A DNA stretch of 64,000 nucleotides from Blastocatellia bacterium (GTDB lineage: Bacteria; Acidobacteriota; Blastocatellia; RBC074). The position numbers were made by a program, and so were the translations under genes. Location of the stretch: positions 22,479 through 86,478 of the forward strand of contig JBBQVH010000012.1 in assembly GCA_038211695.1 (NCBI GenBank). Direction: 5' to 3'. Of the stretch, positions 2,490-17,218 are shown piece by piece; position 1 is the stretch's first letter, and every line of letters begins with the position of its first letter. Under the pieces are notes generated by a model. It saw nothing but the letters and a program-made list of their open reading frames with translations. It did not search any database and had not been told where the DNA came from.

Positions 2490-5400
2490 TCAGGGAATTG
2501 ATTCGACTGTCGCCTTGCGCTCCAGCTTGCCCCAGCCGACAACCGCGCCTCTGAGCGCGGAGACGACGGATTTGACCATCACGTAATACATGACCTGCCG
2601 GTAACAGAACCGCTGCAAAAACAGCCACCACAGGAGGCTCCATTGTTCGCCTTTTTCCAGCATGAAGGCGAAAGCCGCCGCCAGCCAGTCAACCGCCAGA
2701 AACAGCGCGTAATAAAACAGCACCTGTTTTAGATTCGTGATCGCGTACTCCTGCGGATGTTCCAGTCGTTCAAGTGCAGAGGAGAAGAGCGTCCAGAGAA
2801 ACGTCAAATCCATGACCGGCGAAATCAGTGGGAAAAGAATTTGAAAGACCCAGACGTTCGGCATGGCGATGAAGCCCAGCGCGCCGTAACGCGGGTTGAA
2901 CAGGGCATCGCGATGTTTCCACAGACATTGCAATGTGCCGAACGACCAGCGGAATCGCTGTTTGGCCAGGCCGCGCACAGTGTCGGGCGCTTCTGTCCAG
3001 GCGATGGCGTGCTCTTCGTAGCCGATCTTGTAACCCAGCTTTCTGATCTTCAGCGTTAAGTCCTGGTCTTCGGCCAAGGTGTCTGATGCAAAGCCGCCGA
3101 TCTGTTCGATCAGTTCACGCCGCCACGCGCCGACCGCGCCCGGCACCACCGTAATGCAGTTGAGCGAGGCAAAGGCTCGGCGATCCATATTTTGCGCGGT
3201 GATGTATTCCAGCGCCTGCCAGCGCGTCAGCAGGTTGATGCGATTGCCGACTTTGGCATTGCCAGCGACCGCGCCAATTTGCGGCCCCAACTCCGGTTCG
3301 GTAAAACGCGCCGCCAGCGCGCTGATGGTTTGCGCAGGGAAAACCGTGTCGGCATCCAGCGCGACAATGATTTCGCCCTTCGATTGGCGCAGGCCGAAAT
3401 TCAATGCCTCGGCTTTGCCACCGTTTTCCACGGTGAAGAGTTGAACGCTGGGTTCGTGGCCGAAAGCTTCGCGCACCATGGCGCTGGTCCGGTCTGATGA
3501 ACCGTCGTCCACGACGATGATTTCGAAGTGCGGGTAATCGTTGCCCAGCAGGCTGTGGATGGTTTGCAGGATGACTTTCTCTTCATTGAAGGCGGGGACG
3601 ATGATGGAAACGAGAGGCTTTGGCAGATCAGCGATTGAAACGTGTTCGCGCCGCCGTGCCCGCAGCCGCTGTGCCAGCGCCAGCAGGCCAATGACGATCA
3701 TTCGCGCCAACCCCAGCACAATGCCGATCATGAATATCCACCGCATCGTCCAGCCGCCGACGGCCATGGCATAAAATGCAAGCGCATCAGCGTTTGAAAA
3801 CAAGCCTTTGTTCTGTTTGACCAAAGGCATTGTCTGTTCGCGCGATTTCCCGGCCAAATCCGACACCGTCACAAAACGCAGGCCGCGCGAGCGCAATTCG
3901 TGAATCAGATTCGGCAGCGCATCCACTGTTTGCTGGCGGTTGCCGCCGCCGTCGTGCAGCAAAACAATCTGGCCGCGCTCGTCCGGATCAGGGTTTTCAA
4001 TGCCGGCAATCGTGCGTTTGACGATCTGGTCTGCGCCGGGCAGTGCCCAATCATCAGGGTCAACGCGCAATCCGACGATGAAGTAACCGAGCTGATGGGC
4101 GATCCAGGCTGGTTCGACTTCGTCGGTCGTTTGCGGTTCGGCGTCGCCGAAATAAGGCGCGCGGAACAGGTAAGTGGAATGTCCCGTCAACGATTCAATC
4201 AGCCGCTGCGTGGCGTTCAGTTCCAGCACGGTCAGCCGTCCGGGAATTTCGCCCAGGTTTGGATGCGTGTAGGAGTGATTGCCCAGATCGTGGCCTTCGG
4301 CAAAGATGCGCTTGACCAGTCCCGGATTGGCCTGCCCGTTCTGGCCGATGATAAAGAATGCGGCAGGCACGTTCTCGCGCTTCAGGATGTCCAGAATCTT
4401 CGGCGTCCATTCTTCATCGGGGCCGTCGTCAAAGGTCAGCGCCACTACGCCCGGACGATAACCAGTGCGGCGAATTACATAAGATGATGGGATGCTTTTG
4501 TATTCCGCTGTTTGAATCAGGCCGCTTGTCGCATCCGGTTTGATTGCGCGCGCGCCGTCTTTCGGGCTGGCATCGAAGGTCAGGATTTCCCCCATTCCCT
4601 CGAAGTCCACATCGTATCCGTAAACAATGTTTTTCAATCCATCCGGCGAAGCCTCCATTTTGGAAGTGCCGAAGACAGCCCACAGCGAAGGGTCTTCTGA
4701 TCCGAGCCGCCACAGCGCAAAGCCAGCCGGATTGAACTTGCGCGAAGCCCGCATTTGATTGAACGCCGTCACGCCGTCCAGAAACCAGACGGCATGCTTT
4801 GCCCCGTCTTCATCTTCATAGCGGAAGTATGGGTTAAGCGTCGCGGAGTCGAAGGCGATTTTGGCTTCGGAATCTTTCGCCGCCAGCACGGCTTCCTGAA
4901 ATGTCATCTCGGTGGTTTCGCCGCCCTGCTTCCAATCGTAACCGTAACCGCCGATGCAGATGATGGTCTGTTCGCCTTTCATTTCGCGCATGCGCTTGGC
5001 CAGCGTGGATTCGAACCAGGGCTGGCCGCTGATGCTGCCGCCGTCGCTTTCGGCCCAGTGTTCGTCGTAGGCCATCAACATCAAATAATCGTTGGCGGCG
5101 GCATAGTCGCGATAGTTCCACTCTTCGTCATCGAAGGGAATGGCCTGCGTGACAATCCAGTTATGTTCGCGGAAGGTGGCGTGGAGCGCCTGCATAAACT
5201 GCAATAGTTTCGGCTGCGAGCCTTGCGGCACTTCTTCAAAATCAATGCATACGCCCTGAAATTTATTATCGGCGACGAATTGAACCAGGCTTTTGATCAA
5301 CCGCGCGCGCGAAGCTTCGTCGGCGATCTGGGCGGCCAGTGTGGCCGATTCCCACTTGCCCTCTTTCGAATTATGAATCATCGGCAGGATCGGCAGCGTC

Positions 5401-5951
5401 GGGCGCGTCCGCCGGATCAGGTCCAGCCCGGGCGCATGAATTTCTTGCGCAACGGGATTGCTCCCGGCCTGCAATCGCAACCATTCGGGCACAACCCAAT
5501 CCATCTCGGCCAGATTGCGCTTCAGCGATTGATAGCTGGAATCGTCCCAGTTGACATAAAAGCCGATGGCCAGGGGCTTGGCGTTGTTGGGCAGTGGCGT
5601 TTGGATAATTGGGATATTCGGTTTGGGAGGCGCGACTTTGATCTGTGATGGGCGGCGTCCGGGAACGGTTGGCGTTTTGGCCAAGGTGCGCTGCAACACG
5701 GCGTTGGCGCGCAAGGCGCGTTGCTGCGGGCGGTTGGTGACAATGACCGGTGGTTGCAGGCGAGCGTCTGTCGCATTTGGCAATGCAGCCACCGGGCGCA
5801 GATTCAAACGCGGCAGCACGGGGTTGATGATTACGCTGGTAATGAAGGTGACGGCCAACAACGTAACGCCCGCGCCAATCAGCCAGCCAAAGCGGCCCAC
5901 GTGACGACGCCGTTTACCCGCGGGATCAAAAAAGACAGGTTGATGATTCAT
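2490..5951 (-). CDS. Membrane-anchored multidomain exopolysaccharide synthase: GH18-like domain, CE4 polysaccharide deacetylase (NodB) and family-2 processive glycosyltransferase (PgaC/IcaA-like) in one polypeptide
   Basis: 1153 aa, with an N-terminal TM helix. A GH18-like region carries GFYVNWDD and QGVCIDFEE, a degenerate DxxDxDxE motif. The NodB/CE4 motifs are VALTFDDGPDEEWT...NHSYTHP. The GT2 motifs are VSIIVPAFNEE...VVDDGSSD...ALDADTV...QRFRW, followed by C-terminal TM helices. Confidence 0.75.
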   Translation of the reverse strand: MNHQPVFFDPAGKRRRHVGRFGWLIGAGVTLLAVTFITSVIINPVLPRLNLRPVAALPNATDARLQPPVIVTNRPQQRALRANAVLQRTLAKTPTVPGRRPSQIKVAPPKPNIPIIQTPLPNNAKPLAIGFYVNWDDSSYQSLKRNLAEMDWVVPEWLRLQAGSNPVAQEIHAPGLDLIRRTRPTLPILPMIHNSKEGKWESATLAAQIADEASRARLIKSLVQFVADNKFQGVCIDFEEVPQGSQPKLLQFMQALHATFREHNWIVTQAIPFDDEEWNYRDYAAANDYLMLMAYDEHWAESDGGSISGQPWFESTLAKRMREMKGEQTIICIGGYGYDWKQGGETTEMTFQEAVLAAKDSEAKIAFDSATLNPYFRYEDEDGAKHAVWFLDGVTAFNQMRASRKFNPAGFALWRLGSEDPSLWAVFGTSKMEASPDGLKNIVYGYDVDFEGMGEILTFDASPKDGARAIKPDATSGLIQTAEYKSIPSSYVIRRTGYRPGVVALTFDDGPDEEWTPKILDILKRENVPAAFFIIGQNGQANPGLVKRIFAEGHDLGNHSYTHPNLGEIPGRLTVLELNATQRLIESLTGHSTYLFRAPYFGDAEPQTTDEVEPAWIAHQLGYFIVGLRVDPDDWALPGADQIVKRTIAGIENPDPDERGQIVLLHDGGGNRQQTVDALPNLIHELRSRGLRFVTVSDLAGKSREQTMPLVKQNKGLFSNADALAFYAMAVGGWTMRWIFMIGIVLGLARMIVIGLLALAQRLRARRREHVSIADLPKPLVSIIVPAFNEEKVILQTIHSLLGNDYPHFEIIVVDDGSSDRTSAMVREAFGHEPSVQLFTVENGGKAEALNFGLRQSKGEIIVALDADTVFPAQTISALAARFTEPELGPQIGAVAGNAKVGNRINLLTRWQALEYITAQNMDRRAFASLNCITVVPGAVGAWRRELIEQIGGFASDTLAEDQDLTLKIRKLGYKIGYEEHAIAWTEAPDTVRGLAKQRFRWSFGTLQCLWKHRDALFNPRYGALGFIAMPNVWVFQILFPLISPVMDLTFLWTLFSSALERLEHPQEYAITNLKQVLFYYALFLAVDWLAAAFAFMLEKGEQWSLLWWLFLQRFCYRQVMYYVMVKSVVSALRGAVVGWGKLERKATVESIP

Positions 5952-5978
5952 AGATGCAGTCAGGCGGTGGTGCAGTGC

Positions 5979-7565
5979 TCAGGAATTATTTTCTGATTGG
6001 CGCGCCTCTTTCCATAACCGCCGCAGCTTGGAAGTCATGACGCCAGTGAACCCCGCCGGGTCGAACGCGCCGATCAACGCGAAGATCATTCGCAGCCGGA
6101 TGCGCGGCGGATAGATTGCCAGGTATTCAGGATCAATGTACGAAGGCGCAAACTTCGCCTTGAAGCGGTGCAGCGCTTTGAAGTGATAGAACGCGTCCAA
6201 ATGCTCATAGATCAGATTGAGCAGGCGGGAAAGATGTTTGAACCGGGTTGCGGCATTTATTCCGGCATTATTGCCGACATTATTTCCAGCATTATCTCCA
6301 GCAAGGCTCCCGCTTTCGGTGGCGTTATCCTTAACTGGCTTCAGGCCTGCCAGCGGTGACGTGGCCAGCGTGGCCAGTTCCGCGCCTTCTGCGGCCAGTT
6401 GATTCAGGGCCTCGACTACCAGTAATTCGCTGACGCCTCGCTCGGCTTTCCGGTCGCGAATCAAATCTTCCAGATACCAGCCGCGCCGCGCATAAATGGG
6501 CGAACAGGCCAGCAGCCCCACCAACTGTCCGCCGGCTTCGCGGGCCAGAAAATATCGTTTGTCTTCGCCAAAAGAGAACGGATCAAGTTCAAGCAGCCAG
6601 CCCAACGCGTCCACTTCGCGCGTATCAATCCAACGCTGGCAAAGCTCTTCGATCTCGCGACGCTTCTGTTCACATTGATCCTGCAACGGATCGTAACGTT
6701 CGATGTACACGCCGGCTTTGCGCGCTTGGTTGACGCCTGAGCGGACTTTCTTGGCGCGGTCGCCCGCCGGACGCCAGGCGGGAAGCTGGAAGTAACCGGA
6801 TTCACCAATGCGCAATAGGGCCATCCCACACTGGCGCGCGACCTCAGCGAATTCCGATCCGATTGGCAGCATCAGGCAATCCATCTTCTGTTCGTCGCAA
6901 TACGCCAGAAACATGCGCGTGATTTCCGCCCAATGTTCGCGGGCGGCCAGCGGCGCGGCGGCAACAATTGCCACGCGCCCCACGCAGCGATAAATGACAG
7001 CGGCATCCAGATCGTCTGCATACCAGACTTTCATCCCGCCGTAGAGCGATAGAAAAGATTGGTGTTCGTAACCGTAGCGGCGCACGATCTCCATCAAACG
7101 CGGATCAGTCTGTTGCCTGCTGCAACCGAGCGCTCTGCGCGCACGTTGCATCGTCACCCAATCGCCGTTGATGGCCAGCGCAAAATGCCCAGCCGAAACA
7201 GCCTCCGCGGCTGCTTTAATCGCGCGGTTATCCAGCCCGGCTCGCCGCAGCAGGTCAATCGTTCCGCCTGCCGCCAAGCCCGTGGCAATGCCTTTGGCTG
7301 TGACGCCCAAGACGTGCAACGCAACCGTTCGCGCCAGATGGCCGGCCAGAAAAAGATGGCCTCCGCCCGGCAGCAAAAACGTTGCCGCTGCGCCCAAAGC
7401 GCCACCCCACAGGAGAGATTTTTTCAAACGCGGGGTATTGGGCGAACGTTTATCGTCGTGACCGATGACCGAAAGACGGCTGGCATCGAACCCGTTGACA
7501 GTAAGCTGCGCGACAGCTTCCTGGGCAGCAGCCAGATTTTGATAGGTGTTGATGATCTTTGTCAT
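5979..7565 (-). CDS. DUF2156-domain protein (MprF C-terminal-like, aminoacyl-tRNA-dependent transferase fold) with N-terminal YflT/GSP17M-like domain and Gly-rich membrane segment
   Basis: 528 aa. The central region (YGGMKVWYADDLDAAVIYRCVGRVAIVAAAPLAA...FLAREAGGQLVGLLACSPIYARRGWYLEDLIRD) matches the DUF2156/LPG-synthase C-terminal family as I recall it. The N-terminus resembles a general stress protein 17M domain. There is a low-complexity NAGNNVGNNAGINAA stretch. The gene ends 27 bp upstream of the synthase gene on the same strand. Confidence 0.55.
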   Translation of the reverse strand: MTKIINTYQNLAAAQEAVAQLTVNGFDASRLSVIGHDDKRSPNTPRLKKSLLWGGALGAAATFLLPGGGHLFLAGHLARTVALHVLGVTAKGIATGLAAGGTIDLLRRAGLDNRAIKAAAEAVSAGHFALAINGDWVTMQRARRALGCSRQQTDPRLMEIVRRYGYEHQSFLSLYGGMKVWYADDLDAAVIYRCVGRVAIVAAAPLAAREHWAEITRMFLAYCDEQKMDCLMLPIGSEFAEVARQCGMALLRIGESGYFQLPAWRPAGDRAKKVRSGVNQARKAGVYIERYDPLQDQCEQKRREIEELCQRWIDTREVDALGWLLELDPFSFGEDKRYFLAREAGGQLVGLLACSPIYARRGWYLEDLIRDRKAERGVSELLVVEALNQLAAEGAELATLATSPLAGLKPVKDNATESGSLAGDNAGNNVGNNAGINAATRFKHLSRLLNLIYEHLDAFYHFKALHRFKAKFAPSYIDPEYLAIYPPRIRLRMIFALIGAFDPAGFTGVMTSKLRRLWKEARQSENNS

Positions 7566-7796
7566 AGCTGTTGGGGAAACGAAGCATAACGGCTATGCCG
7601 CCAATCAACAATCTTGCCACCTACAAAATTGTCATCAACGCTGATTGGCTGGGAACGCCGAACGCCAGTTCGGCGCTGGCGGTAGGATGTTCAAGCGCCG
7701 AACCGGCGTTCGGCGCTCCCAAACCAATAAAAATGGGAGCGAGGCTAATTTGCCTTCGCTCCCATCGAATTTGTTTTCTTCGTCTGAAATTACGGC

Positions 7797-9302
7797 TTAC
7801 TGTGCCGGAATCGCTACGAAGCTGGTGTGGCCGCCGCGATTGACCAGCAGCAAGACTGAATTCTTGCCGCCCAATTTCAAGGCCTGCCGGAAGTCAGCCA
7901 CATTGTTGACGGGTTTGCGATTCACTTCCTGAATCACATCGCCGCGCCGCAATCCCGCGTCAGCAGCGGCGCTGGCTTCCTGTACGCTGCTGACCAGAAC
8001 GCCAACGGTATTGGCGGGCAATTCAAGCTGGCGCGCGATCTGCGGCGTCAAGCTTTCAACTGACATGCCTTCCATCGAACTGCCTTGGGGCTGCTCTGCT
8101 TCGGCGGCCACTTTCTCCGTTGGCAATTCGCCCAGCGTGATTGTGGTTTCGCGTTCCTTGCCGTCGCGGAAAAGCTTCAGCTTGACCGGTGTGCCCGGAG
8201 CCATCTGGCTGATCTTCAATCGCAATTCGCGATTGTCCACGACCTGTTGCCCGTTCACGGCTGTGATGATGTCGCCTTTGACGATTCCGGCTTTCGCCGC
8301 CGGGCCGCCTTCGCTTACCTCGCTCACCAGCGCGCCGCTCGCTCCGGTTAATCCGAAAGCCTTGGCCACTTCTGGCGTAACGTCCTGAATAGACGTGCCA
8401 ATGTATCCGCGCACCACCTTGCCGCCCTTGCTCAGTTGATTCATCACCGCGCGAACCATATTCACGGGCACGGCGAAGCCTACGCCCTGGTTGCCGCCTG
8501 CGCGCGACAGAATGGCTGTGTTGATGCCGATCAATTCGCCGCGCGTGTTGATCAACGCGCCGCCTGAATTGCCGGGATTGATTGCGGCATCGGTCTGAAT
8601 GAAGTCTTCGTAATCTTCAATGCCCAGATTGCCGCGCCCCGTTGCGCTGATAATTCCCATCGTCACGGTTTTGCCGATGCCGAAGGGATTGCCGATGGCC
8701 AGCGCGATGTCGCCGACCTGCACCTGCGAAGAGTCGGCAAAGCTGAGCGTCGGCAGATTCGTTCCCTCCACTTTCAGCAAAGCGATGTCGGTCTTCGAGT
8801 CCGCGCCAATGACGCGCGCTTTCAATTCGCGCTTGTCGGCCAGCGCGACCTTGATGTCGGTTGCGCCATCAATGACGTGATTGTTGGTCAAAATGTACCC
8901 GTCCGCGTTGACGATCACGCCCGAACCCAGGCCGCGTTCCCGCTGTTCGCGCGGTTGCCGTTGGCCATTCTGATTGGGCATGCGGTTGCCGAAGAATTCG
9001 CGAAATCCGGGATCGTTGAAAAGCGGCGACAGACCTTCATCGCCCGCATCGGCCTTGACGACTTTGGTTGAAACGATGCTGACCACGGCGGGCAGCGCCT
9101 GTTTGACCACCGGCGCGAAACCGCTGGTCAATGTTCCCAACTCCGGCGAATTGCCATTCGCCGTCTTCACGGCCACTTCACCTGAATCGGCATTGGCCGA
9201 TAGATGTCCAATCTTGCCTTCCACAAAAGCAAAGGTCATTGCAAAAGCCAGCGCCAATTCGGCCAGTCCGATTCCGGCGAGCCATTTGTTTCTTTGGGTC
9301 AT
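7797..9302 (-). CDS. htrA: HtrA/DegP-family periplasmic serine protease with two PDZ domains
   Basis: The trypsin-like core carries TDAAINPGNSGGALIN and two C-terminal PDZ-like segments. I chose the start at MTQRNKW (9302) because a consensus AAGGAG lies 6 nt upstream. The track ORF begins at 9332. Confidence 0.9.
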   Translation of the reverse strand: MTQRNKWLAGIGLAELALAFAMTFAFVEGKIGHLSANADSGEVAVKTANGNSPELGTLTSGFAPVVKQALPAVVSIVSTKVVKADAGDEGLSPLFNDPGFREFFGNRMPNQNGQRQPREQRERGLGSGVIVNADGYILTNNHVIDGATDIKVALADKRELKARVIGADSKTDIALLKVEGTNLPTLSFADSSQVQVGDIALAIGNPFGIGKTVTMGIISATGRGNLGIEDYEDFIQTDAAINPGNSGGALINTRGELIGINTAILSRAGGNQGVGFAVPVNMVRAVMNQLSKGGKVVRGYIGTSIQDVTPEVAKAFGLTGASGALVSEVSEGGPAAKAGIVKGDIITAVNGQQVVDNRELRLKISQMAPGTPVKLKLFRDGKERETTITLGELPTEKVAAEAEQPQGSSMEGMSVESLTPQIARQLELPANTVGVLVSSVQEASAAADAGLRRGDVIQEVNRKPVNNVADFRQALKLGGKNSVLLLVNRGGHTSFVAIPAQ

Positions 9303-9641
9303 AAAATTCTCCTTCATCTTGCTAGCAGGCATTTCGATGCATGGCGCGTCCGGCGCGCCCTTGGGGTTTTGTTTTGCGCAACGTTCCGTCCGCGGAAGTC
9401 CGCGCGCTTTGGCAGAACGTGGCTTCCGCGAACTCTTGCCCGCTGGGGTGGCGGGCTAAAGATGTCGCAGCAGCTTGAAAACCGGGATTGCATAGGTGAT
9501 CAGACTGACACGAGACGCCAGCGGAAAAAGTCACCAGGCCATGCATTTTGTATGAGCTTTTCCTACGATTGACGAAACCTTGCGCTTGCGAACAGGCCCG
9601 CTGAGAATGAGGCATTGCTGACACACCAACTCTGACAACAC

Positions 9642-10604
9642 ATGGAGCTGCGAATGACGAAGACTCGACTTCTAACCCTGTTAATTTTATGCGCCGTGCT
9701 GATCTTTGGCGCTGGCGCGGTGATGCTTGCCACTGTGGATGGCCCGAAGAAGGCCGCCGCCTGGCTCTTCACGTCGTTTCGCGGTAATGGCGAAGACGGC
9801 CTGCATCTGGCTTACAGCCGCGACGGGTACAAGTGGACTGCACTGAAGAATGACCAATCTTTTCTGACGCCCGTCATCGGCACGAAGCTGATGCGCGACC
9901 CATGTATCGTGCAAGGGCCAGACGGAATTTTTCATATGGTCTGGACGACTGGATGGAATGATGATGGCTTCGGTTACGCCAGTTCAAAAGACCTGATCAC
10001 GTGGAGCGAACAGCAAACCCTGCCCGTCAATCGCAACGTGAAGGGCGCGAAGAACACCTGGGCGCCGGATGCGTTTTATGATGAAAAGACGAAGCGGTTT
10101 TTGATCGTCTGGGCAACGACCGTCCCTGGCCGGTTCCCCGAAACGGAAGGCCAGGACAAATACAATCACCGGCTTTATTACGTTGCGACAACGGACTTTC
10201 AAAAATTCACCGAGCCAAAACTCTTTTACAATCCGGGCTTCAATTCGATTGATGGCACGCTGCTGAAGGCAAATGGCAGGTATCAACTGGTCTTCAAGGA
10301 CGAGCGTCCGGGGCAGAAGAACCTGCGCATCGCGACGGCGGAGAAAGCGGAAGGGCCTTACAGCGAGCCTTCCGCGCCGATTTCAGGCGATTGGGTGGAA
10401 GGGCCATCAGTTGCGAAGATTGGCGACCGCTGGATGCTCTATTTCGATCATTACCACAACCCGCAATATTACGGCGCGCTGGAATCGAATGACTTCAAAC
10501 AGTGGCGGGACGTGTCGTCGAAAGTGTCGTTCCCGAAAGGACATCGCCACGGGACGGTACTTCAGGTCAGCGAGGAAGTGCTGGGCAAGCTTCTTTCGCA
10601 ATAA
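9642..10604 (+). CDS. Secreted five-bladed beta-propeller glycoside hydrolase (GH43-like), family uncertain
   Basis: 320 aa with a signal peptide. Motifs include LAYSRDGYKW, WAPDAFYDEKTKRFLIVW and WVEGPSVAKIGDRWMLYFDHY, which are reminiscent of the GH43/GH32-clan fold. I cannot fix the family by eye. Confidence 0.4.
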   Translation: MELRMTKTRLLTLLILCAVLIFGAGAVMLATVDGPKKAAAWLFTSFRGNGEDGLHLAYSRDGYKWTALKNDQSFLTPVIGTKLMRDPCIVQGPDGIFHMVWTTGWNDDGFGYASSKDLITWSEQQTLPVNRNVKGAKNTWAPDAFYDEKTKRFLIVWATTVPGRFPETEGQDKYNHRLYYVATTDFQKFTEPKLFYNPGFNSIDGTLLKANGRYQLVFKDERPGQKNLRIATAEKAEGPYSEPSAPISGDWVEGPSVAKIGDRWMLYFDHYHNPQYYGALESNDFKQWRDVSSKVSFPKGHRHGTVLQVSEEVLGKLLSQ

Positions 10605-10608
10605 TCCG

Positions 10609-10739
10609 GCTTGGAGTTAGAGCATGGAGTTCAGGCTTCAGCCTGCGGTTTGTAGTTCGGCCTTCAGGCCGTTTTGTGTCGAGGGTGACTCCAAGCTAAA
10701 GCTTAGTGACAAACCGCAGGCTGAAGCCTGAACTCCATG
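10609..10739. terminator. Long nested hairpin between convergent genes; likely bidirectional terminator or REP-like element
   Basis: 'gcatggagttcaggcttcagcctgcggtttgt' at 10621-10652 pairs with 'acaaaccgcaggctgaagcctgaactccatgc' at 10708-10739. There is additional outer pairing of cttggag with ctccaag. It sits between the stop of the + gene (10604) and the 3' end of the - gene (10760). Confidence 0.5.
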
Positions 10740-10759
10740 CTTGAAACGATAATGTCTAA

Positions 10760-13030
10760 TTATCGAAATGATTCGACGCGCATGATGTCGCTGTTGGAAG
10801 GGTCAACCCGCACGCAAAGCAGGTGGTGCATATCGGGCGAGAGCGAAAACGGCCCGCTGCCAACCGGGGCCAGAGGTTCCGGGTATTTGAGAATTTCGCG
10901 GTCGCGCCCGCTGGTGAAGTCGTGAAAGTAGATGACCTGCGCGTCGAAGGACTGTCTGCCGATGCCCAGATAATAAATTCCATCCTGCCCGGCTGCCCAG
11001 CAGCTTGTGCATTTGGGCAGCACGCCGTCCATCACCTTGGTGAACTCGCCCGTGTCCGTGCGCGCCTGCCACAATGAACTGTCATTGCCATCCTGCATGA
11101 AAAAGATCAGCTTGCCATCCGGCGAAACGGCCAGCGAAATCCCTCGCGTTTTCACTAAGTCCACAGCCTTGCCGCCACCCACCGGCAGCTTGATGATGCT
11201 GTTTGATCCTCCCGCGTAGACCCATTGGCCGTCGGGCGAAAAGACGGGATGAATGCCGGTCAGCCCCGCGCCGCGAATGGTCCAGTTTCCCTCGGTCTCC
11301 AGGTTGGCGAAGTACATTTCTCCGGTGCGGGCGTTGTTGAAAACGATGCGGCGGCCATCCGGCGACCAGTGCCCGACGGAAGGATAGACCGCGCCTTTGG
11401 TGATTTGGGTTTGATGATTACCGTCAGCATCGCTGATCCACAGTTGCTCTTCGCCGCTGCGATCGGAGCGGAAGCAGATTTTGTCGCCCGCAGGAGAATA
11501 CTGCGGTGAGGCATCTTGCGCGGAAGAAGCGATCAGGCGCGTCCACTTCTTCTCTTTCAAATCCAGCCGCCAGATGTTGCGATCCTGCTGCTGGACAGAG
11601 TAGGCGAGCGTCGAGGATGCGCGAGCCAGGGACAATTCCATTGGGAACTCGGCGTAAATGCCGACAGGCTGTGGGTTCTTTTCGGGCATGGGCGCGTCAG
11701 TGCGCAGCTTCCATAACCGGAATTCGCCGCCGCGATCGGAGGCAAAGACAATTTCCCGGCTGCCGCTCGACCAGTCGTGGCCGCTGATTTGTTTGGCATC
11801 GGCAGTCAATTGCCCGGGCGCGCCGCCGGTCACCGGGATTGAATAAAGTTCCTGGTGCGAGCGGTGAATATGGCGAATGAAAGTAATGACGCTGCCATCG
11901 GGAGAAAAGCGAGGGTCCATATCGCCGCCGACCATTTGCCCCGGTTTGGTCAGTGACTTTTTCTCGCCGGTCGCGACGTTGACCAGAAACAGTCCGTTGG
12001 GCTTTTCCGTCGAATCGGAATGTGAAACCACCAGCCATTGCCCGTCCGGAGACCAATCCAGCAGGCGATTCGGAAAACCGTAGTTGGGCGGGGTAAACCG
12101 CGCGACCAGACGATTCGGGGTGCTCGCTCCCGCACCATTTTCCCCGGAACTCTTTTCCCCCAGGCTCTTTTCTAAAGATGCGATCAACACCTCCGTCGCT
12201 GTCGGCTCAATCCGCAAAAAGGCCAGCGCCTTGCCATCGGGTGACCAGGCCGGACTGCTGTAATGTCCCTTTTCCCAGGTGATGCGCGTCGGTGCGCTGT
12301 CGGCTACCGCTTGGATGCAAATGTCGGGGGGCTGTCCATTGCCTTGATCCCACAAAAACGCCACGCGCTTTCCATCGGGCGAAAGCGCTGGTTGCAATTC
12401 TTTCCCGGGCAGGCGCGTGAAAGGCGACACACGAAACATGGCCTCTGACGAACGCGCATTCCTTTGAAGCACAAACCATCCGACGGCAGCCACAATGGCA
12501 ACGACAAGCGCCAGAGCAATCGCAATGGCAGTGAAGGATGCTTTTCGGAAGCCTATCCGTGGGATCGAGACGGGGATAGGGTAAGAAAGATAAGTCTCCT
12601 CCTGCGGCCTGACGATGTCAGGCTCAAGGACAAGGTCGGCGGCCTGAGATTCGCCCCCTTTTTCCTGGATGCCTTCTCGCAAGTTCTGGTGGCCGTTGGC
12701 GGCTGGGGTTTCCACCACCACCGGGCCGAGCAGCCTATATCCTCGTCCGGGAAATGTTTCGATAAAAGCCGGCGTCCCGCGTTCGGCGGCGAGTGCTCGC
12801 CGCACCATCGCGATGTTCTGCGTCAGATTGGCTTCGTCCACGATGCGGTTAGGCCAGATCGCATTTAACAATTCTTCCTTGGGCACCACCTGACCGAAGT
12901 TTTCAACTAATACCAGCAGCGTTTCGACAGCCTTTCGAGTCATTGCCACCGTCTGGCCGTCCTTCAATAGCACCTTGGCCGTGGCGTCCAGGCAAAATGA
13001 TTCGAATCTGTAAAGCTGATGTGGATTCAA
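10760..13030 (-). CDS. Membrane-anchored winged-helix (OmpR/CadC-type) transcriptional regulator with periplasmic TolB-like beta-propeller
   Basis: 756 aa. The N-terminal wHTH region (YRFESFCLDATAKVLLKDGQTVAMTRKAVETLLVLVENFGQVVPKEELLNAIWP) is followed by a TM helix (FTAIAIALALVVAIVAAVGWFVL) and repeated TolB-type motifs (SPDGKRVAF, SPDGQWLVV, SPDGSVITF, SPDGRRIVF). The apparent start codon is TTG. Confidence 0.7.
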   Translation of the reverse strand: MNPHQLYRFESFCLDATAKVLLKDGQTVAMTRKAVETLLVLVENFGQVVPKEELLNAIWPNRIVDEANLTQNIAMVRRALAAERGTPAFIETFPGRGYRLLGPVVVETPAANGHQNLREGIQEKGGESQAADLVLEPDIVRPQEETYLSYPIPVSIPRIGFRKASFTAIAIALALVVAIVAAVGWFVLQRNARSSEAMFRVSPFTRLPGKELQPALSPDGKRVAFLWDQGNGQPPDICIQAVADSAPTRITWEKGHYSSPAWSPDGKALAFLRIEPTATEVLIASLEKSLGEKSSGENGAGASTPNRLVARFTPPNYGFPNRLLDWSPDGQWLVVSHSDSTEKPNGLFLVNVATGEKKSLTKPGQMVGGDMDPRFSPDGSVITFIRHIHRSHQELYSIPVTGGAPGQLTADAKQISGHDWSSGSREIVFASDRGGEFRLWKLRTDAPMPEKNPQPVGIYAEFPMELSLARASSTLAYSVQQQDRNIWRLDLKEKKWTRLIASSAQDASPQYSPAGDKICFRSDRSGEEQLWISDADGNHQTQITKGAVYPSVGHWSPDGRRIVFNNARTGEMYFANLETEGNWTIRGAGLTGIHPVFSPDGQWVYAGGSNSIIKLPVGGGKAVDLVKTRGISLAVSPDGKLIFFMQDGNDSSLWQARTDTGEFTKVMDGVLPKCTSCWAAGQDGIYYLGIGRQSFDAQVIYFHDFTSGRDREILKYPEPLAPVGSGPFSLSPDMHHLLCVRVDPSNSDIMRVESFR

Positions 13031-13372
13031 GACTTACTCACGATTTTAGATTTCTTTTGGAAACTTTTCAGATGCGACTTATTGATGAAAACTAGGCAAA
13101 GGCATATTAAGTCCCGTCATCATTGCTGGTCAAACCCGTATCTAAGCTAGATCGAACGTTCCCGTGTAGAAAGTTTCGGATCATAGCCGCGGCCACTCTT
13201 CCATCCTTAAAACAGGAGTCGCTGCGATACAAACCGGGTTCAAGAATCTATATAAACAAACATACAAAGCTGGCTTTGCTGGGATCAATTTTTAGCGTCA
13301 ATGGCTTCTACAAAACCTCTTGTAGGAGGGTTGTTGGCCTATCCGTTACTTTGCGTTGAGCAAGGAGATCCC

Positions 13373-16300
13373 ATGAAAAAAAGATTTCTCGCGGTCACAC
13401 ATTATTGGGTGATGGCAGCGGCCATTTTATTGGCCGGTAGCGTTTTCGGGCAAAGTGCCGGTTCAATTTCCGGCACAGTGAAAGATGGCAACAACGCGGC
13501 GATTGCCGGCGCTGCTATCACGGTTGTCAATCCGGCCAAAAGCATTACGCAGACAGCAAGCACCAATTCCGATGGAGGCTTTGTTTTCCCCCAACTGCCG
13601 CCAGGCGCATACACCATCACCGTGGAGAAGTCAGGTTTCAAGAAGGTTGAGAAGAGCAACGTCATCCTGAGCACAGGCGACAGGCTCAACGCGGGCGACT
13701 TCGTACTGGAAATCGGCAATGTAACTGAGGCGATCCAGATTCAGGCCGACGCGGGCCAATTGCAGATCAAGTCCGAATCAGGCGAACGCTCCGACCTGGT
13801 TTCGGGTCAGCAGATTCGGAACATCGGTCTGAATGGGCGCAACGTGATTGACCTGGCGAAGCTGGTTCCGGGCGTTATTTCCGGCGGCCCCGCGTCAGGC
13901 AGCGGAGCTTCCACCGTCAACAACATCACCGGGAGCTTCAATATCAATGGCACTCGCAGCAGCCAACACGAATATACCGTTGACGGCGTCACCAACTTCA
14001 ACCTCGGTAACAACACCGGGGCGCTGGTTTCGGTAAACCCCGATGCGCTGGAAGAGGTCAAGATTCTGACCTCGAATTATCAGGCCGAATATGGGCGCAG
14101 CGGCGGCGGCTTCATCGCGCTGACCACACGCGGAGGCACGAATCAGTATCACGCTACCGGTCGCTACTTCCGTCGCCACGACAGCTTGAATGCCAACACA
14201 TTCTTCAACAACGCGCGGGGCGGTCAGGGGACTTTTTCGCGCCCGCTGTATCGCTTCAAATACTACGGCTGGGATTTTGGCGGGCCGGTCATTGCGCCGC
14301 GCTTTGGCGAAGGCGGATCGCCGATTTGGAATGGGAAAGAAAAGCTCTTCTTCTTCATCAACCAGGAATATTACAGCCAACTGGTGCCACAATTGTCGTC
14401 GGTCAACATTCGCGTTCCCACGGCGGCTGAACGCGCGGGCGATTTCTCGCAATCGGTGGACGGTGGCGGCAACAGGATTTATATCAAAGACCCGTTACTT
14501 TCGGGGGCGTGCAGCGCAGCCAGCCAGGCGGCTTGCTTCCCCGGCAACATTATCCCCGCGAACCGCCTGTACGGCACAGGCCGGGCGATTCTCAATCTCT
14601 TCCCCGCGCCGAACACGACGGCGGGCGGCAACAATTACAACTACAGTTCGCAGGTGCCCAGCGCATATCCGCGCCGCGAAAACATCATTCGCGTTGATTA
14701 TCAGGTTTCCACCGCCACGCGCTTGAGCGGACGCTGGGTTCACAACTTCGACGATCAACAATTCGCTTACGGCACGACGACGGCTTCGTGGAACTGGCCG
14801 CTGACAGTTGCTGACCGCAGGAATGGGCCGGGCAACGTGCTGTCATTCACGCTGACCCACAACTTCAGCCCGACGCTGATCAACGAATTCACCTACGGCG
14901 CGGGGCGTGGCGGCGTGACAATTGCGCCATCGGATGACAGGGCCACGCGCACAGTGACGGGCATCAACACGCCGCTGCTCTATCCCAACGCGAACGAAGC
15001 GAACCTGATCCCCACGATCATTATGGGCGCGGTGCCGAACGCCAGCGCGCTGGGCAATACTTCAATCTTTGGGACATTCGATCAACGCTTCGTTATCAAC
15101 AACTTCATTGATAATCTGACGAAGGTCGCGGGCAAGCACGTGCTCAAGTTCGGCCTTTATTACCAGCGTGCCTCGAACGCCAGCAACTCGCAGAACCACG
15201 TTCAGGGCGACATTGATTTTTCGAACAACGCCTCGAACCCGCTCAACAGCGGCTACGCCTATGCCAACACGCTGCTTGGCATTTACAACACCTACACCCA
15301 GGCCAGCTCGAAGGTGAAACAGAGCTACTTTTATCAAGACATCTCCGGCTACGTGCAGGACACCTGGAAAATCATGCCGCGCCTGACGCTCGATTTAGGA
15401 CTCCGGCTTTCGTACTACGAGCCGTATCACAACATCGTCGGGCCGGAGAGCTTCTTTAACCCAGCGCTGTTTGATCCGGCCAAGGCGACGCGTATTTATC
15501 GTCCCGTTTGCGTTGGCGCTTCGACATGTTCGGCTGGACAGGCCGCGTATCGCGCGCTTGATCCGACCACGACCGGCGCAGCGACATTGGCGAACACACA
15601 ACCGGGCTTTCTGGTTGGCAAGCTGGTGCCGAACAGCGGCGATTTAACCAACGGCCTGGGGCTGGTCACGAACGGGTATCCGGCGGGCGGACTGGATACG
15701 CATCCAATCTTGCCGCAGCCGCGTCTGGGCTTTGCCTGGGACGTAACCGGCCACCACAAGATGGTTGTGCGCGGCGGATTCGGTATTGCCTATGACCGTT
15801 ATCGCAGCGACGTCAACGGCAGTGGCGCAGCAAACCCGCCGTATGTCTTCAACCCAACTCTTAACTTCGGCTACCTGCAAGATATTCAGCCCGGCGGGAG
15901 CGGCGCGTTATCGCCTTCAGCGATTTTCGGCGTTGACCGCCAGGGCGACTGGGGAGCGGTCTACAGCTACAGCATCGGCGTGCAGCGGGAGCTATTCAAA
16001 GACACTGTGATTGATGTGTCTTACGTCGGATCGCAATCGCGCCACCTGCCGCGCACCCAAAACTTGAACGCCATTCCTTTGGGAACGACGTTTAAGGCTG
16101 CGTCGCAAGACCCAACGCGATACGCGGGCGGCGTCATTCCGGCTGCTGAACCTGGGTTGCCTGCGGCGCACCAAGCGGCGGGACTCGGCTACAGCGGACA
16201 GTTCGCGCTGGCGGCGGACTTCCTGCGGCCATATCAAGGCTATGCCGACATTACCTATCGGTCATTCGACGCCAACTCGCTCTACAACTCGTTGCAGGTG

Positions 16301-17104
16301 TCGGTCCAGCGCCGTTTCGCCAAGGGCTTGACGTTGGGTATTGCCTACACATTATCGAAAGTGATGACAACGGTTTCTGACGAAACCACCATCACCAATA
16401 TCAATAACCCCAGAGCGTATGACTATGCCTTGGCGACCTTCGACCGTACGCATTTCTTTGTTGCGAACTATGTGTGGGACTTGCCGCGAGGCACAAGGCT
16501 GGTCGGCGACCACTGGCTGACGCGCGCGGCTTTTGATAACTGGACGATCAGCGGAATCTCGACGGTCGGTTCCGGGAACCCGGCGGAATTAGGATTGAGC
16601 ATCGCGGGCCAGGATGCGGGCAATCGTTTGCTGGGCGCATACACCAACGGCAATCTTTCCGGGCAACAGCCGCGCTTATACGTTAGCGGCGCAGCGCAGA
16701 GCGCGCCCGACCAGATCAACCTGTCGGCTTTTACTGTTCCGGGCATCAACGACAAGGGGCCATATGCGCGCTTCTACCTGCGCAACCCCGGCATCAATAA
16801 CCACGACCTCTCGGTACTCAAGAACTTTCCATTTGGAGGAGAAGGGAAGTACCGCTTGCAGTTGCGCGTGGAGATGTTCAACTTTCTGAATCACACGCAA
16901 TTTTCCGGCGTCAACCGGACGACCAACATCACCAACGGCGCGGGACAGACCGGAGCGGCGATATTCGGCAACTACACGGGGCTGACCGTGACCAACAACA
17001 CGCGACCAGCGGGCAGTACATCGGTGCCCGGAACGTACTTCGGCGAATACAGTGCCGCCCGCGACCCGCGCATTATCCAGTTGGCCGCAAAGTTCTTTTT
17101 CTGA
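13373..17104 (+). CDS. TonB-dependent receptor (CarboxypepD_reg N-domain + plug + beta-barrel)
   Basis: About 1243 aa from the ATG at 13373. AAGGAG lies 7 nt upstream. Signal peptide MKKRFLAVTHYWVMAAAILLAGSVFGQ. The G(S/T)I(S/T)GTVKD...G(A)...VTV Ig-like regulatory domain is present, with GNIIPANRL and a terminal aromatic (…AAKFFF) typical of an outer-membrane barrel. Confidence 0.8.
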   Translation: MKKRFLAVTHYWVMAAAILLAGSVFGQSAGSISGTVKDGNNAAIAGAAITVVNPAKSITQTASTNSDGGFVFPQLPPGAYTITVEKSGFKKVEKSNVILSTGDRLNAGDFVLEIGNVTEAIQIQADAGQLQIKSESGERSDLVSGQQIRNIGLNGRNVIDLAKLVPGVISGGPASGSGASTVNNITGSFNINGTRSSQHEYTVDGVTNFNLGNNTGALVSVNPDALEEVKILTSNYQAEYGRSGGGFIALTTRGGTNQYHATGRYFRRHDSLNANTFFNNARGGQGTFSRPLYRFKYYGWDFGGPVIAPRFGEGGSPIWNGKEKLFFFINQEYYSQLVPQLSSVNIRVPTAAERAGDFSQSVDGGGNRIYIKDPLLSGACSAASQAACFPGNIIPANRLYGTGRAILNLFPAPNTTAGGNNYNYSSQVPSAYPRRENIIRVDYQVSTATRLSGRWVHNFDDQQFAYGTTTASWNWPLTVADRRNGPGNVLSFTLTHNFSPTLINEFTYGAGRGGVTIAPSDDRATRTVTGINTPLLYPNANEANLIPTIIMGAVPNASALGNTSIFGTFDQRFVINNFIDNLTKVAGKHVLKFGLYYQRASNASNSQNHVQGDIDFSNNASNPLNSGYAYANTLLGIYNTYTQASSKVKQSYFYQDISGYVQDTWKIMPRLTLDLGLRLSYYEPYHNIVGPESFFNPALFDPAKATRIYRPVCVGASTCSAGQAAYRALDPTTTGAATLANTQPGFLVGKLVPNSGDLTNGLGLVTNGYPAGGLDTHPILPQPRLGFAWDVTGHHKMVVRGGFGIAYDRYRSDVNGSGAANPPYVFNPTLNFGYLQDIQPGGSGALSPSAIFGVDRQGDWGAVYSYSIGVQRELFKDTVIDVSYVGSQSRHLPRTQNLNAIPLGTTFKAASQDPTRYAGGVIPAAEPGLPAAHQAAGLGYSGQFALAADFLRPYQGYADITYRSFDANSLYNSLQVSVQRRFAKGLTLGIAYTLSKVMTTVSDETTITNINNPRAYDYALATFDRTHFFVANYVWDLPRGTRLVGDHWLTRAAFDNWTISGISTVGSGNPAELGLSIAGQDAGNRLLGAYTNGNLSGQQPRLYVSGAAQSAPDQINLSAFTVPGINDKGPYARFYLRNPGINNHDLSVLKNFPFGGEGKYRLQLRVEMFNFLNHTQFSGVNRTTNITNGAGQTGAAIFGNYTGLTVTNNTRPAGSTSVPGTYFGEYSAARDPRIIQLAAKFFF

Positions 17105-17131
17105 GGTTTGCGGCCTCACCCGGAAAGTAGC

Positions 17132-17193
17132 GTTCAGAGTTCACGCTTCAGCGTGTCTAAAGCTGAAAACACGCTGAAGCGTGAACTCTGAGC
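17132..17193. terminator. Near-perfect 23 bp stem hairpin after the receptor gene
   Basis: 'ttcagagttcacgcttcagcgtgt' then a 12 nt loop then 'acacgctgaagcgtgaactctgag'. The gagttcaNgcttcagc core is shared with the 10621 hairpin. Confidence 0.55.
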
Positions 17194-17218
17194 CTTATTT
17201 CAATCAGATCATCTCAAA

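Follow-up and report, generated by a model that had tools for sequence, protein, structure and literature searches.

Why should a gene for an MprF-type transferase lie directly upstream of a gene for a polysaccharide synthase that carries its own hydrolase and deacetylase domains? This question is raised by a 64,000-nucleotide stretch of DNA from a Blastocatellia bacterium (contig JBBQVH010000012.1), here called the window, in which an earlier note had picked out a DUF2156 gene next to a fused PgaB/PgaC-like synthase gene and had suggested that the polysaccharide, or an associated lipid, might be aminoacylated. The answer that we favor, and to which we give an even chance, is a co-regulated envelope module in which the synthesis of an aminoacyl-lipid and that of a cationic, partly de-N-acetylated polymer of N-acetylglucosamine (GlcNAc) are two independent functions. 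Domain identities, conserved catalytic residues, a predicted topology and a recurrent, facultative linkage of the two genes in two phyla come directly out of the analysis, and from these we infer substrates, polymer chemistry, co-transcription and co-regulation.

The two open reading frames (ORFs) lie on the - strand. The DUF2156 gene (5979-7565) encodes a flippase-less MprF-type protein of 528 amino acids (aa), and the gene of the tri-domain synthase (2490-5951) encodes 1153 aa; the intergenic spacer of 27 bp (5952..5978) between them, like the positions and the strand, is as the earlier note had given it. Both gene starts are consistent with the orthologue alignments, which comprise 26 DUF2156 sequences strongly conserved across the transferase domain (alignment A1) and 20 synthase homologues with 63-86% identity (alignment A2). 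Since no terminator-like hairpin was reported in the 27-bp spacer by a generic scan, the counts of which equal those of shuffled controls, the two genes are probably co-transcribed in the window lineage. The corresponding gap is about 3 bp in the close relative L010. The nearest relatives of the window genes are metagenome-assembled genomes (MAGs) of Blastocatellia, in agreement with the acidobacterial origin implied by the earlier note.

The synthase contains a GH18 glycoside hydrolase domain, a CE4 de-N-acetylase domain and a processive family-2 glycosyltransferase (GT2) domain with transmembrane (TM) helices in a single polypeptide, a prediction of the earlier note that is borne out by Pfam, an AlphaFold2 (AF2) model and Foldseek. 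In Pfam, Glyco_hydro_18 covers residues 181-417 (E 6e-14), Polysacc_deac_1 (CE4) residues 500-600 (E 1e-31) and several GT2 families residues 779-1054 (E 5e-34); the domain E-values of the synthase and of the DUF2156 protein are far past chance. The AF2 model of the synthase, with a mean predicted local distance difference test (pLDDT) score of 70.6, shows three separately folded domains: a confident TIM barrel (GH18), followed after a small beta linker (448-496) by the CE4 domain, and a GT-A domain. Hydropathy places TM segments at residues ~18-49 and ~728-763 and in the 1022-1138 region, giving the order TM, GH18, beta linker, CE4, TM, GT2 and C-terminal TM helices. The motifs of the CE4 and GT2 domains are complete and, like the key catalytic residues of the GH18 domain, invariant in all 20 homologues of A2.

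The GH18 domain (residues ~126-428, 4668..5576 on the - strand, as are all synthase features below) is a (beta/alpha)8 barrel of the YdhD/SleL/5JH8 subgroup, predicted to be extracytoplasmic. The matches of this part among PDB sequences are 5JH8, YdhD and SleL/YaaH, and Foldseek finds 5JH8 with a TMt of 0.85, as well as SleL and YdhD. The DxxDxDxE motif of the family reads Q-G-V-C-I-D237-F-E239, Gln and Cys taking the places of the first two Asp residues, and these two Asp residues are also missing in YdhD, SleL and 5JH8 ('GVTIDFE', 'GINVDFE'). The catalytic D237-F-E239, with the last Asp of the motif and the acid/base Glu, is invariant in the 20 homologues, and so are Y295-D296 and W414, the residues of the substrate-assisted mechanism of the family. 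Together with the confident TIM barrel, the invariance of D237-x-E239, Y295-D296 and W414 argues against a non-catalytic spacer, which the earlier note had named as an alternative for this segment, and the sequence makes activity of the GH18 domain plausible.

The CE4 domain (NodB homology; residues ~498-706, 3834..4460) is assigned by Pfam, motifs and Foldseek and is also predicted to be extracytoplasmic. The CE4 family is defined by five NodB-homology motifs, TFDD, H[ST]xxH, RxPY, DxxDW and LxH. All five are invariant in A2, as TFDDG at 506, HSYTH at 559, RAPY at 597, DPDDW at 631 and LLHD at 664. This part is nearest to PdaB, PgdA and NodB among NCBIfam models and to B. cereus Bc1960 among PDB sequences, and Foldseek matches Bc1960 with a TMt of 0.82 and 38-40% identity. 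The processive GT2 domain (residues 779-1054, 2790..3617), predicted to be cytoplasmic, is assigned by Pfam and NCBIfam, motifs and Foldseek. It contains VDDGS at 814 (DDGS 814-818), DAD at 866-868, AEDQD at 960 (ED 961-962) and QRFRW at 998-1002, so that the D, DxD, (T)ED and QxxRW motifs of processive membrane GT2 enzymes are all there, invariant and followed by TM helices. The PDB sequence matches of this part are hyaluronan and cellulose synthases, and Foldseek matches the GT2/TM part to the hyaluronan synthases of a Chlorella virus (Cv-HAS) and of Xenopus.

The topology predicted from the sequence puts GH18 and CE4 on the outer side of the membrane and GT2 on the inner side, as described for MatB of Streptomyces (PMC5972031). 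Since the basic stretch GKRRRHVGRF (G-R-R-x-R in the A2 consensus) precedes the N-terminal membrane anchor (residues 18-49, 5805..5900, by hydropathy), the N-terminus of the synthase is probably cytoplasmic. The second TM segment (residues ~728-763, 3663..3770, by hydropathy), within a long helix 717-768 of the AF2 model, would bring the chain back to the cytoplasm. The C-terminal hydrophobic helices (residues ~1022-1138, 2538..2888, by hydropathy; AF2 helices 1026-1149 of low confidence) presumably form, together with the interface helices of the GT2 domain, a polymer-conducting channel, by analogy with BcsA and HAS. As a separate observation, the conserved G-R-R-x-R lies at residues 12-21 (window 5889-5918) ahead of the first TM helix; tatA directly precedes the synthase gene in several Blastocatellia loci, and Tat might export the folded GH18-CE4 part through an uncleaved signal anchor.

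Because all three domain families handle GlcNAc-containing glycans, the product is likely to be a beta-linked poly-GlcNAc that is partly de-N-acetylated. The cues to its linkage conflict: the PgaC-like GT2 domain points to beta-1,6, the GH18 domain and the chitin/peptidoglycan-type CE4 domain point to beta-1,4, and the sequence does not decide between them. Peptidoglycan, and not the synthase's own product, is another conceivable target of the GH18 and CE4 domains, for their nearest relatives are SleL/YdhD and PgdA; their covalent coupling to a GlcNAc-type synthase and the precedent of MatB speak for modification of the own product, which we rank above a peptidoglycan target.

The DUF2156 assignment made in the earlier note holds on profile search. 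PF09924 (LPG_synthase_C) matches residues 160-483 with an E-value of 5.9e-44 and 150.8 bits against a cutoff of 27.5, and the protein covers positions 3-297 of the 298 of the profile. A-PGS and L-PGS are its matches among PDB sequences, and Foldseek aligns its AF2 model (pLDDT 68) with 4V36, 4V35 and 5VRV at TMt values of 0.77-0.81, that is, ~0.8 to L-PGS and A-PGS. In contrast, the full MprF model NF033480 gives 99.5 bits against a cutoff of 600, and Pfam finds no match to the flippase domain PF03706 (LPG_synthase_TM) in the protein. The transferase domain, with a tandem-GNAT fold like that of the aminoacyl-phosphatidylglycerol synthases, spans residues 160-527 (5985..7088, - strand; PF09924, A1 and Foldseek). 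No record identical to the DUF2156 protein was found by exact look-up.

HMMER aligns 'YLEDLIR' of the DUF2156 protein with 'SLDLMR' of P. aeruginosa A-PGS, and 'HRFKAKF' with 'RRFKDKF'; D367 and R370 of 'EDLIR' and F468-K469 of 'HRFKAKF' are invariant in the 26 orthologues of A1. D367 and R370 correspond to D750 and R753 of Agrobacterium MprF (AfMprF), in which D750A and R753A abolish lysyl-phosphatidylglycerol and M752L is inactive (bioRxiv 10.64898/2026.04.24.720753). The position of M752 is occupied by Ile369 (window 6459-6461), which is Ile throughout the Blastocatellia-type DUF2156 family and hints at a differently packed active site. A basic helix at residues 268-283 of the AF2 model contains R270, K272, K273, R275, R282 and K283, of which R275 is invariant; the basic helix between the tandem GNATs is held to bind the tRNA acceptor stem (PMC7334510, PMC6103681).

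The N-terminal extension of the DUF2156 protein (residues 1-150, 7116..7565, - strand), delimited by a marginal PF11181 match, the AF2 model and hydropathy, comprises a small alpha/beta YflT-like domain (1-35 and 111-145) split by a Gly/Ala-rich hydrophobic helical hairpin (47-108). The YflT (PF11181) match covers residues 4-44 with 27.1 bits against a cutoff of 26.2. The hairpin is weakly hydrophobic (hydropathy ~1.4), and the pLDDT is low over residues 38-106; it is a candidate membrane tether in place of the TM domain of MprF. An Asn/Gly-rich low-complexity insertion (…GDNAGNNVGNNAGINAA…; residues ~411-441, 6243..6335, - strand; A1 columns ~485-513) forms a surface loop that is shortened in the closest relatives (P0003-P0005) and missing from other orthologues of A1, and the pLDDT is below 50 over residues 399-442.

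These features lead to a plausible picture of the module. Expressed from a two-gene transcription unit, the two proteins would carry out two independent envelope-remodeling activities. The DUF2156 protein would, most likely, use aminoacyl-tRNA (aa-tRNA) to esterify an amino acid onto the hydroxyl of a membrane lipid (phosphatidylglycerol or similar) at the cytoplasmic face, kept at the membrane by its Gly-rich N-terminal hairpin. The cytoplasmic GT2 domain would polymerize GlcNAc from UDP-GlcNAc and pass the chain out through the synthase's own TM channel. Outside, the CE4 domain, tethered to the membrane, would de-N-acetylate part of the residues to yield a cationic polymer, and the GH18 domain would cleave or hold GlcNAc-containing stretches. 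A stress-controlled or two-component-controlled program for envelope charge and matrix may place the genes together, neither enzyme modifying the product of the other.

How firmly are the two genes linked? A scan with the DUF2156 family alignment, covering one genome per species of the Genome Taxonomy Database (GTDB), yielded 33 loci of the Blastocatellia type and 17 distant loci with a stand-alone DUF2156 gene (Obscuribacterales, Melainabacteria, Actinomycetota). According to tblastn and ORF clustering, the window and five of the 33 related loci have an intact synthase gene no more than 10 kb from the DUF2156 orthologue. Relative to DUF2156, the synthase is found at +28 bp in the window, +4 bp in L010, +229 bp in L025, +1.1 kb in L018, +2.9 kb in L019 and -4.8 kb in L030, and the order DUF2156-tatA-synthase is seen additionally in the Logan contig L150. 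The linked cases fall into five separate clades of a neighbor-joining DUF2156 tree, and their sister taxa are unlinked. In L009 (83% aa identity; region 1-2130), degP and the synthase gene are both deleted and DUF2156 is intact, with 72 nucleotides of the 3' end of the synthase gene left directly after it. In L027 (16807-17083), only fused synthase fragments remain, 5.4 kb downstream of an intact DUF2156 gene. Both genes are intact on contig JADJLO010000043.1 and lie ~85 kb apart, and synthase homologues with 63-70% identity occur in unrelated gene contexts. The linkage in Blastocatellia is thus old and recurrent but often lost, and DUF2156 is retained without the synthase. The neighbors of the nearest stand-alone DUF2156 genes outside the Acidobacteria (Obscuribacterales, Actinomycetota), which encode a phosphoglucomutase, a histidine phosphatase and an aldehyde dehydrogenase, are uninformative. 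Among the Blastocatellia-type contigs, L012, L014, L018, L027, L032, L033, L037 and L039 are titled 'uncultured Heliomicrobium sp.' or 'Heliobacteriaceae', which looks like an error in the taxonomy label.

Frequent loss invites the explanation that the genes have no functional relation, the neighborhood being residual synteny in Blastocatellia and an unrelated neighborhood effect in sphingomonads, and the window pair having been joined by deletion. The low count (five of 33 related loci with an intact synthase within 10 kb) fits this, and so does degP, which is kept near DUF2156 about as often, in four of 34 loci with the window counted. Other loci interpose a separate promoter, tatA, an opposite-strand gene or a histidine kinase gene between the two, which makes the operon derived. 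In detail, the synthase gene directly follows tatA in L059 (7797-7988), L150 (2966-3163), L018 (12316-12606) and L030 (1209-1451), and sigma-54 sites that match 10 or 11 of the 11 consensus positions stand ahead of tatA-synthase or the synthase gene in L018 (12298), L059 (7500), L025 (11596) and L030 (1587), against a background of 0.03 sites per kb per strand. Since neither tatA nor a near-consensus sigma-54 promoter lies between DUF2156 and the synthase in the window and in L010, their tight operon is a derived state. Chance alone, however, would bring two given genes within 10 kb of each other in a genome of ~5 Mb in only ~0.4% of cases by our estimate, the linked cases are spread over five clades of the DUF2156 tree, and an independent association with full-length MprF has been kept through four rearrangements in a second phylum. 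We regard the absence of any functional relation as possible though doubtful.

This second association comes from a metagenome scan with the synthase alignment, which gave 80 loci, mostly at 35-56% identity. A hidden Markov model (HMM) of the DUF2156 family detects large DUF2156-bearing ORFs beside the synthase in L076, L108 and the Sphingobium plasmid L062. Pfam identifies them as full-length MprF (PF09924, E 1e-90 to 1e-99), with a sub-threshold match to LPG_synthase_TM in two of the three, and identifies the 246-aa gene between the synthase and mprF in Sphingobium (L062) as VirJ/AcvB. By phmmer and RefSeq annotation, the genes form a five-gene set of synthase, acvB/virJ, mprF, an OmpR-type response regulator (RR) and a histidine kinase (HK), in which the synthase (syn) has ~42% identity to that of the window. 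The set occurs in four gene orders in Sphingobium, two strains of Novosphingobium, Sphingomonas and three metagenome contigs: syn > virJ > mprF > RR > HK in L062 (Sphingobium, 6947-15808); HK < RR <, then mprF > virJ > syn > in L076 and L144 (N. resinovorum); syn >, < HK < RR, then virJ > mprF > in L108 and L148 (Novosphingobium sp. RL4); and virJ <, syn >, < HK < RR, then mprF > in L145 (Sphingomonas parapaucimobilis, 7792-17565). The set is partial in L075. In three of the four orders, acvB/virJ directly adjoins the synthase gene.

Among 44 tri-domain loci, mprF, acvB/virJ and the genes of the response regulator and the histidine kinase are the most recurrent neighbors, and the sole other neighbor family in at least five of them is a GT-C/PMT_2-like membrane protein. 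No such five-gene cluster surrounds the synthase in Bacillus mycoides, Deinococcus, Sulfitobacter and Prevotella; in Deinococcus, a DUF2156 gene lies ~100 kb from the synthase gene. Since the sphingomonad MprF and the acidobacterial stand-alone DUF2156 protein are only distantly related (E 1e-11), the two associations of the synthase with DUF2156/MprF genes arose separately. No VirJ homologue was found at the Blastocatellia loci by phmmer. Of the gene-annotated sphingomonad loci checked, L062 alone has a BLUF photoreceptor gene, just ahead of the synthase gene. No mention of glycosyltransferases or neighboring genes is made in the AcvB structure paper, and the clustering of synthase and MprF-type genes was not found in the literature searched (DUF2156 with polysaccharide; acvB, lpiA or mprF with deacetylase, PNAG (poly-N-acetylglucosamine) or chitosan). 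The co-conservation of the pair across Acidobacteria that the earlier note had asked for therefore has two sides: five tree clades and the sphingomonad mprF/AcvB association support it, but only five of the 33 loci are linked and DUF2156 outlives the synthase.

Clustering in two phyla would also be expected if the lipid served the synthase. The aminoacyl-lipid could be a requirement or helper, either neutralizing anionic phosphatidylglycerol at the channel so that the polycation is released, or acting as an activating boundary lipid. Besides the clustering itself, the intact CE4 motifs, by which a cationic product is expected, and the full mprF and acvB homeostasis pair that stands beside the synthase in four gene orders fit such a conditioning of the membrane. 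On the other hand, the synthase is found by itself in many lineages, for example on Bacillus mycoides plasmids and at most Blastocatellia loci, and from sequence the predictions are the same as those of simple co-regulation. We consider a lipid requirement of the synthase unlikely.

A more direct chemical connection is that the DUF2156 enzyme puts an amino acid on the polymer itself. The aminoacyl group might pass straight from aa-tRNA to the nascent chain, at its cytoplasmic end or its primer; or an aminoacyl-lipid made inside might be flipped and its aminoacyl group passed to the glucosamine (GlcN) amines or hydroxyls of the polymer outside, a last step for which the AcvB/VirJ-type serine hydrolase of sphingomonads could be the transacylase. 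In favor of this are the clustering of the synthase with DUF2156/MprF genes in two phyla, the direct adjacency of acvB/virJ and synthase in three of the four sphingomonad orders, the tight 27-bp operon of the window, and the existence of tRNA-dependent GNATs that act on an amino-sugar compound, namely Sbb17 and Sba18 with streptothrisamine (Foldseek, E ~1e-7). Several observations oppose it. Selection keeps DUF2156 where the synthase is lost or far away (L009, L027 and the 85-kb separation), and most tri-domain synthases have no DUF2156 neighbor. The aa-tRNA is cytoplasmic, whereas the free amines would be made by the extracytoplasmic CE4 domain, and the Blastocatellia loci have neither a flippase domain nor a VirJ homologue. 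Moreover, every characterized DUF2156 enzyme acylates lipids (PMC6103681, PMC7334510). An aminoacylated polysaccharide is thus very unlikely in our judgment. What survives of the functional link proposed in the earlier note is a plausible relation between the genes; its aminoacylated exopolysaccharide is improbable, the transferase fold of every characterized relative being cytoplasmic and lipid-directed.

We return to the two-function module. A link beyond chance is favored by the five clades of the DUF2156 tree, the second phylum, the four rearrangements and the two-component system, which belongs to the sphingomonad cluster and is often near DUF2156 in Blastocatellia. The near-consensus sigma-54 sites ahead of tatA-synthase or the synthase gene in L018, L059, L025 and L030 fit a regulated program as well. 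Independence of the two functions is favored by the DUF2156 genes that remain intact without the synthase (L009, L027) and by the 85-kb separation; conversely, the synthase occurs with no DUF2156 gene nearby in Bacillus, Deinococcus, Prevotella, Sulfitobacter and many Blastocatellia loci. Several points weigh against this interpretation. The DUF2156 protein lacks the flippase/TM domain of full MprF, and its lipid acceptor is a matter of prediction. Ile369 replaces the Met of the inactive AfMprF M752L, and the active site may differ. Clustering is equally expected if the aminoacyl-lipid is needed by the synthase or is a donor to the polymer, and the linkage in Blastocatellia could in part be slowly decaying ancestral synteny. 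The roles of both families are predicted from sequence and structure. Finally, the window has no sigma-54 site scoring at least 10 of 11 positions and no histidine kinase or response regulator gene within 18 kb, and the one sign of co-regulation in the window is the 27-bp spacing.

The commonest neighbors of DUF2156 in Blastocatellia are genes for a histidine kinase and a sigma-54-type response regulator (11-14 of 34 loci). L018 and L059 have a second sigma-54 site on the opposite strand toward a divergent gene, which in L059 encodes a BON-domain protein, and L011 (424) is the only locus with a consensus sigma-54 site just upstream of DUF2156. In the window, sequence inspection places the candidate promoter of the DUF2156-synthase unit in the 231 bp upstream of the DUF2156 gene (7566..7796, - strand). 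Directly after the stop codon of degP/htrA, a G+C-rich hairpin with a T-run behind it (7726-7763, - strand) resembles an intrinsic terminator, by which degP would be set apart from the unit; it was recognized by eye and missed by the automatic scan, probably owing to a long or bulged loop. Two perfect 20-bp palindromes (CGCCGAAC-N4-GTTCGGCG; 7656-7675 and 7696-7715) precede the DUF2156 gene at a spacing of 40 bp and are conceivably a pair of operators. They have no other copies in the window, none of 100 shuffles gives two or more matches, and they were not found upstream of DUF2156 orthologues and so are window-specific. A weak sigma-54-like site (TGGCAAGATTGTTGAT; 7619-7604, - strand) matches nine of 11 positions and is not conserved upstream of most DUF2156 orthologues; with this as the best site, sigma-54 control of the window unit is not claimed. 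A generic scan for sigma-70 promoters and terminators was uninformative, its counts being the same as in shuffled controls. Farther upstream lie genes for a DegP/HtrA protease with two PDZ domains (7797-9332), a GH43-like hydrolase (9642-10604) and an OmpR-type DNA-binding domain fused to PD40/beta-propeller repeats (10760-13030); the degP/htrA and GH43-like hydrolase genes are syntenic with L010.

The closest characterized precedent for the synthase is MatB of the Streptomyces MatAB system, a CE4-GT2 fusion that is a PNAG synthase (PMC5972031). Like MatB, the window synthase has an extracellular CE4 domain, a TM helix and an intracellular GT2 domain in one membrane protein, and like matAB its locus is small, has no outer-membrane export apparatus and has a partner gene adjacent (matA, of unclear role). 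It differs from MatB by the extra N-terminal GH18 domain and by its host, a diderm acidobacterium, and its upstream partner is a DUF2156 protein, whereas MatA is reported to have no recognizable domain (PMC5972031). The product of MatB is a beta-1,6 PNAG that is bound by mAb F598 and degraded by dispersin B. MatB also shows that the domains are not always separate proteins in PNAG systems, as the earlier note had held, and the tri-domain architecture is itself widespread.

Compared with PgaABCD and IcaADBC, the window GT2 domain shares the D, DxD, ED and QxxRW motifs and is nearest to the PgaC_IcaA model (TIGR03937), the best NCBIfam GT2 model for the synthase, and polymerization is predicted to be coupled to partial de-N-acetylation. 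Its score of 196.6 bits is, however, below the equivalog cutoff of 422.3 bits. In PgaB, too, a CE4 domain is paired with a (beta/alpha)8 hydrolase domain, which is a C-terminal GH153 domain. The window barrel, in contrast, is of the GH18 YdhD/SleL type and N-terminal to the CE4 domain in an integral membrane fusion, and it does not fit the periplasmic lipoprotein organization of PgaB. Unlike PgaABCD, all domains are in one polypeptide and no analogues of PgaA or PgaD are nearby. The pairing of a GlcNAc-polymerizing GT2 with a CE4 domain recalls NodC/NodB and chitin synthase/chitin deacetylase as well: the CE4 domain resembles peptidoglycan, chitin and NodB deacetylases, the best structural match of the GT2/TM part is Chlorella-virus hyaluronan synthase, and the GH18 domain would suit beta-1,4-GlcNAc chains. 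The NodC model nevertheless scores lower (103 bits) than PgaC_IcaA.

With MprF/LpiA-AcvB systems the DUF2156 protein has in common the tandem-GNAT fold of PF09924, the basic helix between the GNATs and the Asp/Arg pair that is essential in AfMprF, and the sphingomonad mprF-acvB pair clusters with the same synthase family. Unlike MprF, it has no LPG_synthase_TM flippase domain, which the Blastocatellia form either lost or never possessed, and no AcvB/VirJ partner, scores 99.5 bits against 600, has a YflT-like N-domain with a Gly-rich hairpin, and carries Ile in place of the active-site-adjacent Met. Fungal ErdS/ErgS and actinobacterial AlaDAG synthase use DUF2156 domains on acceptors other than phosphatidylglycerol (sterols, diacylglycerol), which is possible without a flippase domain; their known acceptors are all lipids, and they differ from the window protein in having no link to a polysaccharide synthase and in their distant sequences. 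The addition of GH18 to a MatB-like synthase and the YflT/hairpin-DUF2156 architecture are uncharacterized variants of known families.

The tri-domain fusion is not unusual in databases. All of the 120 best database matches listed have the three domain families, at 61-90% identity to the synthase, and the named ones among them are Blastocatellia, Pyrinomonadaceae or other Acidobacteriota. Homologues are numerous in the protein-database search, mostly in MAGs of soil Acidobacteriota (Blastocatellia) and in metagenomes. Copies covering at least 80% of the protein occur in 30 plasmid or chromid records; those listed, at ~33-45% identity, are from Sphingobium, Novosphingobium, Sphingomonas, Bacillus mycoides and relatives, Deinococcus, Prevotella nigrescens and Sulfitobacter, and their annotation, where given, is only 'glycosyltransferase' or 'glycosyl transferase family 2'. 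A GT-C-fold membrane protein (PMT_2-related, distantly ArnT) is a recurrent immediate neighbor of tri-domain synthases in other lineages (L060 12411-14297; L066 2013-3713; L067; L077 8414-10099; L086 8462-9982). No paper on the tri-domain form and no characterized member was found in the literature searched, and 'bifunctional polysaccharide deacetylase' led only to a paper on a lasso-peptide glycosyltransferase, which is not relevant.

A bolder proposal is that lipid aminoacylation and poly-GlcNAc/GlcN synthesis are mechanistically coupled, either through aminoacylation of the polymer by a Dlt-like relay, in which AcvB/VirJ would be the transacylase in sphingomonads, or through an obligatory lipid cofactor for secretion of the polycation. 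We consider such coupling rather improbable; if true, the pair would stand for a cationic-envelope module conserved across two phyla or more. As a candidate machinery for a cationic matrix polymer that is chitosan-like or like de-N-acetylated PNAG (dPNAG), the GH18-CE4-GT2 protein is very compact, and its clustering with MprF-type genes offers a testable link between membrane-lipid aminoacylation and biofilm-matrix synthesis, for which sphingomonads are probably more accessible test organisms than uncultured Blastocatellia. A purely regulatory coupling would add modestly to envelope stress biology, whereas a chemical one would amount to a new pathway of polysaccharide modification.

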